Origin: an uncultured Candidatus Saccharibacteria bacterium
Lineage (GTDB): Bacteria; Patescibacteriota; Saccharimonadia; Saccharimonadales; UBA4665
Length of the DNA stretch: 64,000 nt
Direction: 5' to 3'
Assembly: GCA_964513385.1 (NCBI GenBank)
Contig: CAZEMC010000007.1
Location: 21,552 to 85,551, forward strand
Every line of letters begins with the position of its first letter. The first letter of the stretch is position 1. The notes below the pieces were generated by a model. The model worked only from the letters and a program-made list of their open reading frames with translations. It had not been told where the DNA came from and searched no databases. Below are positions 40,353 through 56,588 of this stretch, piece after piece. A program made the translations under genes and the position numbers.

Positions 40353-40407
40353 TGGTTACTGGTTTGTGGGCTATGATTAGGCTATGACACAGCGGAATCG
40401 GCATGTA

Positions 40408-40573
40408 GTGAACCCATCGCAAAACCCCATTCCGGCCAAAACCCGCAGTCTTGCACGCTGGAGCGCTCAGGCCACTCGTCGCGGTAACTACGGTTACGCC
40501 TCCTCCCGTCCTGAACACTCCAGCCCACAATCTGCAGGTTTTGACTCGAAAGCGGGTTTCGCAATGGGTTCAC
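40408..40573 (+). repeat. 165-nt rod-like hairpin element, copy 1
   Basis: Terminal stem GTGAACCCATCGCAAAACCC / GGGTTTCGCAATGGGTTCAC. Internal helices AAACCCGCAG/CTGCAGGTTT, CTGGAG/CTCCAG and GTAAC/GTTAC. Homologous to 56384-56548 in the opposite orientation. Confidence 0.75.
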
Positions 40574-41352
40574 TGCAAAGACTGGGGCGGTTGCCTGGTG
40601 GAAATTTCTGGGTGTTTGCGGTAACGCAAGCCTGGGCTGGGCTGTTCGGTTTGCTCCTGCTTGGCGCTGTGTGGGTGACGCAGTCTGTCACGTTGCCTTG
40701 GTTCGGGCGGTATGATTGGCTGCTTATCTTCGCCGTGATGATTCAGGCGATTATGCTGCTGGCGCGGCTACAAAAGCCGACCGAGCTTCTTATCGTGGCC
40801 GTATTCTATCTGCTCGGGCTTGGTATAGAGGTATTCCAGACGTCAAGCGCCGTGCAGGCTTGGGCGTATCCAGACTCGGGTTCGTTAGTGCTCGGCAATG
40901 CGCCGCTGTTCGCAGGGTTCCTGTACGCGGCTATCGGTAGCTACATCTTCCGGTTGTGGCGCATCACGCGGATGGAGTTTACGAACTATCCTCGCCAACG
41001 ATATGCTGCGCTGCTTGCGCTTGCGATATACATCAATTTCTTTACCGCGCACGTCCTATACGATGTAAGCTACCTGCTACTTCTTGCAGCTCTCATTCTT
41101 TTCTGGCGGACACGTGCGTCGTATGTAAACAACGGTAAAAAGCGTCATATGCCATTCCTCTTGCCAGTACTTATCGCTCCCCTGCTGATACTGCTTGCTG
41201 AAAAATTCGCTGCCTTTGCACAGCTCTGGGTCTACACCGAAGAACCGAACTCACTGAGCAAAATCCTCACCTGGCTCCTCCTTCTGCTCTTCAGCTGCAT
41301 TATCGTCGACCTGCTCCGTTCTCATAGCGGTCCAAGCAGCACGACTAGATAA
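40564..41352 (+). CDS. DUF817 family membrane protein
   Basis: Typical DUF817-like TM pattern (FAVTQAWAGLFGLLLLG...YDWLLIFAVMIQ). ATG 40564 lies inside the right arm of the rod element. Confidence 0.7.
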   Translation: MGSLQRLGRLPGGNFWVFAVTQAWAGLFGLLLLGAVWVTQSVTLPWFGRYDWLLIFAVMIQAIMLLARLQKPTELLIVAVFYLLGLGIEVFQTSSAVQAWAYPDSGSLVLGNAPLFAGFLYAAIGSYIFRLWRITRMEFTNYPRQRYAALLALAIYINFFTAHVLYDVSYLLLLAALILFWRTRASYVNNGKKRHMPFLLPVLIAPLLILLAEKFAAFAQLWVYTEEPNSLSKILTWLLLLLFSCIIVDLLRSHSGPSSTTR

Positions 41353-56144: not shown

Positions 56145-56357
56145 TTATGCTTTGTCAACAGGTTTTTCCGGAACGACCACCCAACAGATAATGTATGCCA
56201 GAAATGCAGGAAAGAAACCGAAGAGGAGCAGCGCCACTGCTATAAGCCGTACGACGACAGGGTCGATGGCGAAGTATTCCGCTACCCCGCCACATACGCC
56301 GGCAATCATTTTGTTTGTCGTAGAACGATATAAGCGCTTGGGTTCTTGTTGTGTCAT
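56145..56357 (-). CDS. PspC domain-containing membrane protein
   Basis: KMIAGVCGGVAEYFAIDPVVVRL followed by one TM segment. Confidence 0.8.
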   Translation of the reverse strand: MTQQEPKRLYRSTTNKMIAGVCGGVAEYFAIDPVVVRLIAVALLLFGFFPAFLAYIICWVVVPEKPVDKA

Positions 56358-56383
56358 ACCTTTAGTATACGCTCTTTCGTAAA

Positions 56384-56548
56384 TGAACTCATTTCAAAAC
56401 TCGCTTCCTAGGCTGAAACTTGCAGATTGTGGGCTGGAGTGTTTGGAGCGGGAGGAAGCGTAACGGTGTTTACGGTGACGAGTGCTCCGGGCGCTCTGGC
56501 CTGCAAGGCTGCGGGTTTTAGGCGGAATGGAGTTTTGAAATGAGTTCA
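56384..56548 (-). repeat. 165-nt rod-like hairpin element, copy 2
   Basis: Perfect 19-bp terminal stem TGAACTCATTTCAAAACTC / GAGTTTTGAAATGAGTTCA. The interior aligns with the reverse complement of 40408-40573. Confidence 0.75.
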
Positions 56549-56550
56549 AT

Positions 56551-56576
56551 AAAAAACCTAGCCATTTCCGGCTAGG
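56551..56576 (-). terminator. intrinsic terminator after the tRNA-Thr/Tyr/Thr cluster
   Basis: Minus strand reads CCTAGCC-GGAAAT-GGCTAGG followed by TTTTTT. Confidence 0.75.
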
Positions 56577-56588
56577 TTCGGTATTCTG

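Follow-up and report, generated by a model that had tools for sequence, protein, structure and literature searches.

Tourist-like MITEs of plants, which belong to the PIF/Harbinger group and are related to IS5, are short, non-autonomous elements with terminal inverted repeats that rely on an IS5-related DDE transposase supplied in trans. They produce 3-bp A/T duplications of their targets (TAA/TTA) and insert near genes. Among the repeats of proteobacteria, ERIC and Correia elements have an orientation-dependent effect on neighbouring genes. Within the IS1031 subgroup of insertion sequences, ISLrh of Lacticaseibacillus rhamnosus measures 857 bp, is bounded by the inverted repeats GAACCTGTCTAGTATCT, carries orfA and orfB in overlap and produces 3-bp TNA duplications (PMC12016507). 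Compensated folds at the RNA level have precedents among MITE-like repeats, bcr1 being one (PMC3184786). These ~155-bp MITE-like repeats of the Bacillus cereus group are flanked by direct repeats and their distribution is not conserved between strains; their RNA-level structure is kept by base-pair compensatory changes, and they are known to be transcribed (PMC3184786). Literature searches for MITE or REP elements in Saccharibacteria or other CPR bacteria gave nothing relevant.

Here we describe a family of rod-like palindromes represented by two copies in the window, by which we mean the whole stretch of 64,000 nucleotides that was analysed. The window belongs to a Saccharimonadales (TM7/CPR) genome of 1.42 Mb in 28 contigs with 54.5% G+C, referred to below as G000. 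The initial annotation had reported two ~165-nt rods, and both are present where it placed them. The cores of the two copies and the conserved tips of their rods are as follows:

40410..40571, G-rich (better-folding) strand minus: core of copy 1 of the very probable MITE, GAAC...GTTC, 162 bp (alignment and folding)
40473..40508, minus strand: conserved tip of copy 1 (shared with rods of unrelated stems; its internal pairing covaries)
56385..56547, G-rich (better-folding) strand plus: core of copy 2 of the same element, 163 bp, reversed relative to copy 1
56452..56483, plus strand: conserved tip of copy 2; the minus strand reads ACTCGTCACCGTAAACACCGTTACGCTTCCTC (G000:C7:78003-78034)

The palindrome of copy 1 reaches beyond its core, to 40407-40574, and the two copies are 79-81% identical. 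On the strands first read, each copy forms a single long hairpin: -79 kcal/mol for copy 1 (z -8.4) and -61.7 kcal/mol for copy 2 (z -9.4), against dinucleotide shuffles. The rod as such is confirmed, but the choice of strand is not: the opposite strand of each copy folds better, with -113.5 kcal/mol (z -13.8) for the minus strand of copy 1 and -102.2 kcal/mol (z -13.7) for the plus strand of copy 2. A covariance model, R1, scores copy 1 at 143.7 bits on the minus strand (G000:C7:61955-62126) and copy 2 at 152.4 bits on the plus strand. The core of 162-163 bp contains no transposase ORF, and the ORFs that cross it are read-through. The pseudo-peptides mentioned in the initial annotation are indeed read-through of non-coding DNA; within copy 1, translation is probably confined to the final 8 bases.

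The two copies differ in their terminal stems by compensatory changes, as had been noted: C-G pairs are replaced by U-A at three positions, and other changes of this kind are present. The idea of co-evolving terminal repeats holds as far as covariation is concerned, but the covariation is not restricted to the terminal stem and spans the whole rod. In a structure-blind MAFFT alignment of 12 alignable rods, double changes were found in 32 of the 53 predicted pairs. Pairing cells make up 90.7% in this alignment vs 79.8% in shuffles, none of 500 shuffles being as high, and pairing falls to 28-44% when the partners are slid by 1-3 columns.

The rods are topped by a conserved 32-nt tip, ACTCGTC-NNN-GTAAC-N4-GTTAC-GCYTCCTC, which is found on unrelated stems in G000 and its relatives. 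Most members of the family keep it, and some short forms are without it. In copy 1 the tip reads CACTCGTC-GCG-GTAAC-TACG-GTTAC-GCCTCCTCCCG on the plus strand and GGGAGGAGGC-hairpin-CGCGACGAGTG on the minus strand. The tip of the G-rich strand may be drawn as a continuous helix under a hairpin of 5-6 bp; this putative helix would comprise two 5'-GA-3'/3'-AG-5' tandems with one G-C pair between them. The stem of the hairpin covaries, appearing as GTAAC/GTTAC, ATACC/GGTAT, ATATC/GATAT and ATAGC/GCTAT. The tip position adjoining the hairpin covaries as well (A-U 26, G-C 18, G·U 9, other 9, the last class probably including chance regex matches). The invariance of the tip in the set from the collection scan is partly circular, because these sequences were picked by the tip pattern. 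Most of this worry is removed by the covariance-model matches in the related genome G439, which have the same loop strands and variant hairpins.

Two further features of the rod were observed. In a 'long tip' variant, found at G000 C1:28383-28577 and at loci L087 and L091 of G439, a G+C-rich hairpin (CCCCGG...CCGGGG) and a second small hairpin take the place of the 5-bp apical one. Its presence in two otherwise different subfamilies suggests either that subfamilies have exchanged tip modules or that the variant is ancestral. About 15 bp below the tip, subfamilies with unrelated arms have in common another conserved internal loop, which reads GAGCGAAAA / UUUGCAGCC when the G-rich strand is considered (many rods, for example L049, L052, L054-L061, L065 and L011).

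Using BLAST, we found five close copies in G000. A covariance model built from 40 rods gives nine full copies in this genome, and short tip-less forms lie at C12:19166-19251 and C14:13892-13970. With the same model, 19 of the 81 sampled genomes of the GTDB family have matches, ranging from 1 to 31 per genome. The exact tip pattern occurs at 19 loci in a collection of ~185,000 species genomes, all of them Saccharimonadales / Saccharibacteria MAGs, including the complete genome CP025011.1, and at 19 further loci among unannotated metagenome contigs. No copy of the exact pattern was found in viral contigs, nor across 400 other genomes of the order; the latter result indicates a patchy distribution. 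Variant tips were recovered later by the covariance model. Every full-length locus of the tip scan is a rod of ~165-170 nt, and most of these loci have the termini (TA/TAA)GAACYC...GRGTTC(TA/TTA). The family was found here only in Saccharimonadales (TM7). The 31 rod-model matches in ~1 Mb of G439 (JBBPZG01, bin.36) represent a burst of one subfamily. Several contigs of this assembly end inside rod copies, which indicates that the element fragments assembly.

Comparison with the sister species G001, a congeneric genome, shows that the rod element is mobile and duplicates 2-3 bp of A/T sequence. In G001, the site of copy 2 is cleanly empty, and another locus of that genome carries a copy with 96% identity. 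The filled site, GTA[AAT]GAAC..GTTC[AAT]AAAAAACC, corresponds to the empty site GTAAACAAAAAACC in G001:C42, and this filled/empty comparison defines the flanking duplication:

56382..56384: target-site duplication AAT, left of copy 2
56548..56550: target-site duplication AAT, right of copy 2

The site of another G000 copy, c6, is likewise empty in G001 (GCTATTTG as opposed to the filled GCT[AT]GAAC...GTTC[AT]TTG, with the duplication AT). The reverse case is also observed: the sites of the G001 copies L110 and L104 are empty in G000, and the target duplication of L110 is TA/TTA. Since empty and filled sites are found both ways between the two genomes, the family has moved since the species split. 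Flanking repeats of other copies are TAA/TAA, TTA/TTA, ATA/ATA and TA/TA. The duplications AAT, ATA, TAT, AT and TA also occur, a departure from the uniform TNA that an IS1031-group element would be expected to leave; several older copies have no flanking repeat. At one rod site of G000 (C8:103132-103301), the orthologous spacer of G001 (C9:39066-39473) instead consists of 408 nt of different hairpin repeats, among them the GCGAACGAGG family, which is also present elsewhere in the window. We regard the spacer as a hot spot where small repeats insert.

The rod termini, GAAC(C/T)C..../....G(G/A)GTTC, are conserved across subfamilies. We searched for a partner with the terminal 16-mer in five rod-bearing genomes. 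The search recovered one identical pair of termini 974 bp apart (G001:C11:4269-5242), corresponding to an insertion sequence with the inverted repeats GAACCCATTCCAAATCTCC; the rod termini GAACCCAT.CAAA match the inverted repeats of this 974-bp IS5-family element. Its ORFs overlap, meeting at an A8 run, and match DUF4096 (PF13340, 3e-20) and DDE_Tnp_1 (PF01609, 1e-16). Against the NCBIfam IS5 model NF033580, the halves of the transposase score 89 and 71 bits; as the gene is split, each falls short of the 110-bit cut-off. A second frame change in this element suggests decay or an assembly error. Judged by its ends and domains, the partner is of the IS5 family and appears IS1031-like; the ISL2- or IS427-like subgroup, with duplications of 2-4 bp, may be the alternative.

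The likeness between the insertion sequence and the rod is confined to the terminal 16-19 nt, which leaves a simple internal deletion unsupported as the origin of the rod. Of the 81 genomes sampled, only G001 itself has this transposase or a close relative; G456 has a remnant, and two further genomes have distant matches of the IS5 type. A transposase of this type is absent from G000 and from G439, in whose assembly no matching one is present. Neither PF13359 (Harbinger-type DDE) nor NF033580 has a match in G000. As G000 has no matching transposase, the window copies are probably stranded. The flanks of the G001 insertion sequence have no counterpart in G000. An IS4/IS701-like insertion sequence of G000 was tried as a partner and rejected: its ends are unrelated to those of the rods. 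This element of ~1.07 kb (C10:14698-15769, or L047:1383-2454) has 20-bp inverted repeats ACAGGTATTACGCGTTTGCC and a 336-aa transposase, and it is the sole DDE_Tnp_1 element of G000.

The empty sites, the 2-3 bp duplications, the ends held in common with an insertion sequence and the patchy copy number make it very probable that the element is a MITE, that is, a non-autonomous, gene-less derivative or hitch-hiker of an IS1031-like insertion sequence of the IS5 family. By what is known of this family, a DDE transposase supplied in trans would recognise the terminal inverted repeats of 16-19 bp (GAACCCAT.CAAA...), and the unit of ~163 bp would be inserted into short A/T targets with duplication of 2-3 bp.

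Insertions are found in intergenic spacers, often flush with gene ends, terminator tails or start codons. The features next to the two window copies are:

40564..40566, plus strand: likely start codon ATG of a DUF817 paralogue, within ATGGGTTC, the right terminal repeat of copy 1
40564..41352, plus strand: DUF817 paralogue gene, 262 aa from the proposed start (Pfam and paralogue alignment)
56145..56357, minus strand: probable pspC-domain gene, 70 aa, named by sequence motif alone; it starts 27 nt from copy 2
56554..56579, minus strand: intrinsic terminator at the end of the tRNA cluster; the insertion of copy 2 falls within the T-tail

As first described, copy 1 and the DUF817 gene overlap at the start of the latter, and copy 2 lies between the terminator of the tRNA operon and the probable pspC ORF. 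In the long ORF, which runs from 40384, residue 75 is the first of the Pfam DUF817 domain, i.e. the domain starts after copy 1. The DUF817 paralogue shares 47% identity with another DUF817 gene and lacks an orthologue in G001, and the alignment of its N-terminus fits a start at ATG 40564. As this ATG is part of the right-hand terminal repeat, the gene probably owes its start and its first two or three codons to copy 1. The 60 codons upstream of it (window 40384-40563) are open, in frame through the element. Annotation pipelines probably call a 322-aa DUF817 protein with a spurious N-terminal extension. Rickettsia palindromic elements (RPE) were considered and rejected as a model: the rods lie between genes and not in-frame inside translated genes. 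One rod that seems to lie within an ORF, L040, is in fact placed before the real start, after which a signal peptide is encoded.

The element goes beyond a plain MITE in the conserved tip of most members and in a strong strand asymmetry. On the C-rich strand (the strand of copy 1 that was first read), mismatches between the arms comprise 199 A·C vs 47 G·T, and each A·C mismatch of this strand corresponds to a G·U pair in its G-rich complement. The better fold is that of the G-rich strand in 28 of 28 rods (on average -91.8 vs -63.8 kcal/mol) and in all 18 further full-length rods from metagenomes, bringing the total to 46. Over 42 distinct rods, 344 G·U pairs were counted on the G-rich strand vs 67 on the other; the G-rich strand has 2172 G vs 1304 C, and G·G and A·G predominate among its single mismatches. 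The G-rich strand folds as a continuous rod with ~13% G·U pairs. The orientation of the rods has no significant bias with regard to local GC skew (4 against 5) or to co-directional flanking ORFs (G-rich strand sense in 5, C-rich in 10). As the orientations are mixed, the asymmetry is explained neither by local mutational strand bias nor by read-through transcription.

Two copies are orthologous between G000 and G001. In these, five of the seven substitutions at positions predicted to pair switch between Watson-Crick and G·U pairs on the G-rich strand; of the remaining ones, one breaks a pair and one changes U·G to A·G. Within this tiny sample of two copies, the substitutions are suggestive of constraint after insertion. 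The flank identity of the orthologous copies is itself 83% to 100%, making a comparison of conservation between copy and flank uninformative.

On balance, the strand asymmetry inclines us to the view that a single-stranded form of the G-rich strand may be under selection, most simply as a transcript folding into a closed hairpin. A more specific and doubtful proposal is that of a MITE with a genuine RNA module. Here the G-rich strand would be transcribed to a closed rod of ~75 bp, the purine-rich tip (GGGAGGAGGC / GNNGACGAGUG) would bind a factor of the host or of the element, and the RNA would maintain or spread the family. If such a module exists, it could serve as a decoy for a protein or the ribosome, as a small RNA processed by RNase III, or as a cofactor or antisense of the IS5 transposase. 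No promoter-like site was found in or beside either window copy. Rfam scans of 20 kb and of a 201-nt element returned only tRNAs and sub-threshold plant miRNA precursors.

A strand-specific rod fold would also suit an element of the REPIN or PATE kind whose single-stranded DNA is mobilised by a Y1 (HUH) enzyme of the RAYT or IS200/IS605 type, since movement as a single strand needs only one strand to fold. Y1_Tnp genes are present in G000 (one IS200-like and three RAYT-like), and among the 81 genomes of the family rods occur in 8 of the 10 with a Y1 gene vs 11 of the 71 without (Fisher 8e-5, with kinship and genome size as confounders). Our reading of this co-occurrence is a shared load of mobile DNA in larger genomes. 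However, the short REP hairpins on either side of the RAYT-like genes (TTGAGAGGACTGTCCTCTCAA and others) are unrelated to the rods, and no rod is nearby. The terminal inverted repeats of the rods are genuine ones, the same as in the IS5-family insertion sequence, and the rods have 2-3 bp duplications, whereas Y1 elements have neither. Eleven rod-bearing genomes have no Y1 match, among them the single-contig G012 and the two-contig G013. Taken together, this makes transposition by a Y1 enzyme quite improbable.

The RAYT-like genes of G000 (C4:83837-84064, C4:115513-115734 and C8:41226-41450) correspond to proteins of ~205-230 aa with the motif YHVYARGN...LMPNHFH...ISRYIHLNP. The REP-like hairpins beside them, such as TTGAGAGGACTGTCCTCTCAA, recur elsewhere in G000 and form a separate REP/RAYT system in a 1.4-Mb CPR genome. 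The IS200-type TnpA (C5:65217-65579, 145 aa, 113 bits to Y1_Tnp) has tandem-like repeats just upstream.

Slightly less probable still is a multi-copy structured non-coding RNA gene that is palindromic by chance and maintained by the host, not by transposition. Such a gene would account for covariation over the whole rod, for the conserved tip, whose drawn form would include G·A tandems and has a covarying hairpin, for the enrichment of one strand in G·U pairs and for orthologue substitutions that mostly keep wobble pairing. It does not fit the presence and absence of copies both ways between sister species, with target duplications, nor the ends common to an insertion sequence and a patchy copy number of 1 to 31. 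In addition, short forms without the tip persist, the rods occur in both orientations relative to genes and GC skew, and the element has no promoter-like site or terminator of its own and no Rfam match. The initial annotation had offered a structured RNA or a MITE. The second of these is retained; a free-standing RNA gene is not, given the mixed orientation and the lack of an Rfam match and a promoter-like site.

A chance palindrome or a set of similar ordinary terminators is barely conceivable: copy 2 does abut a terminator, but the z-scores of -8 to -14, the 9 copies in G000 with dozens more in other genomes and the occurrence of rods without a U-tail of their own argue against it. Integron attC sites, retron msd, 6S RNA, bridge RNA and single-strand origins were also considered and set aside, their conserved parts, context or copy number being a misfit. 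No integrase or reverse transcriptase context was seen.

Although the genomes of Saccharibacteria are tiny and streamlined, this one contains at least nine copies of the very probable MITE, and a relative gives about thirty matches. Rods that lie flush with genes may donate start codons (as is likely for the DUF817 paralogue), split terminators from promoters and break assemblies, and they are relevant to annotation and gene regulation in a hard-to-culture group. The combination of features is unusual: a compensated, G·U-rich fold of one strand with a conserved tip, yet in an apparent user of a double-strand DDE transposase. If the fold is that of an RNA, the family offers a tractable case of a mobile element with a structured RNA; otherwise, it is another uncatalogued MITE family.

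Among known systems, the IS1031 subgroup resembles the rods in inverted repeats that start with GAACC (GAACCTGTCTAGTATCT in ISLrh, GAACCTGTCC or GAACCTGTTC in some rods) and in the 3-bp duplications TAA, TTA or ATA found at several rods. Like ISLrh, the partner insertion sequence is small (974 bp) and has two overlapping ORFs with DUF4096 and DDE domains. Unlike in this subgroup, the rod duplications are of 2-3 bp and not always TNA, and the interior of the MITE is unrelated to that of the insertion sequence. A whole-body rod with a conserved tip and a one-strand fold is, to our knowledge, undescribed for the IS1031 group.

The rods are similar to REPINs, which are mobilised by RAYT, in being hairpin-forming, multi-copy and intergenic, and the REPIN fold matters on single-stranded DNA. 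Unlike the rods, REPINs have no target duplication, and conserved REP ends flank the RAYT genes; the RAYT-like genes of G000 carry repeats other than the rods. ERIC and Correia (nemis) elements of proteobacteria share with the rods the form of imperfect intergenic palindromes of ~100-160 bp that give long hairpins at the RNA level, but they differ in hosts, ends and presumed transposases, and Correia elements duplicate TA. In contrast to bcr1, the element here is a single rod with 2-3 bp duplications. We know of no description of a conserved apical module or a G·U strand asymmetry in Tourist-like MITEs. These are eukaryotic, and the rods of Saccharimonadales, if correctly placed with the IS5 family, are their bacterial counterpart.
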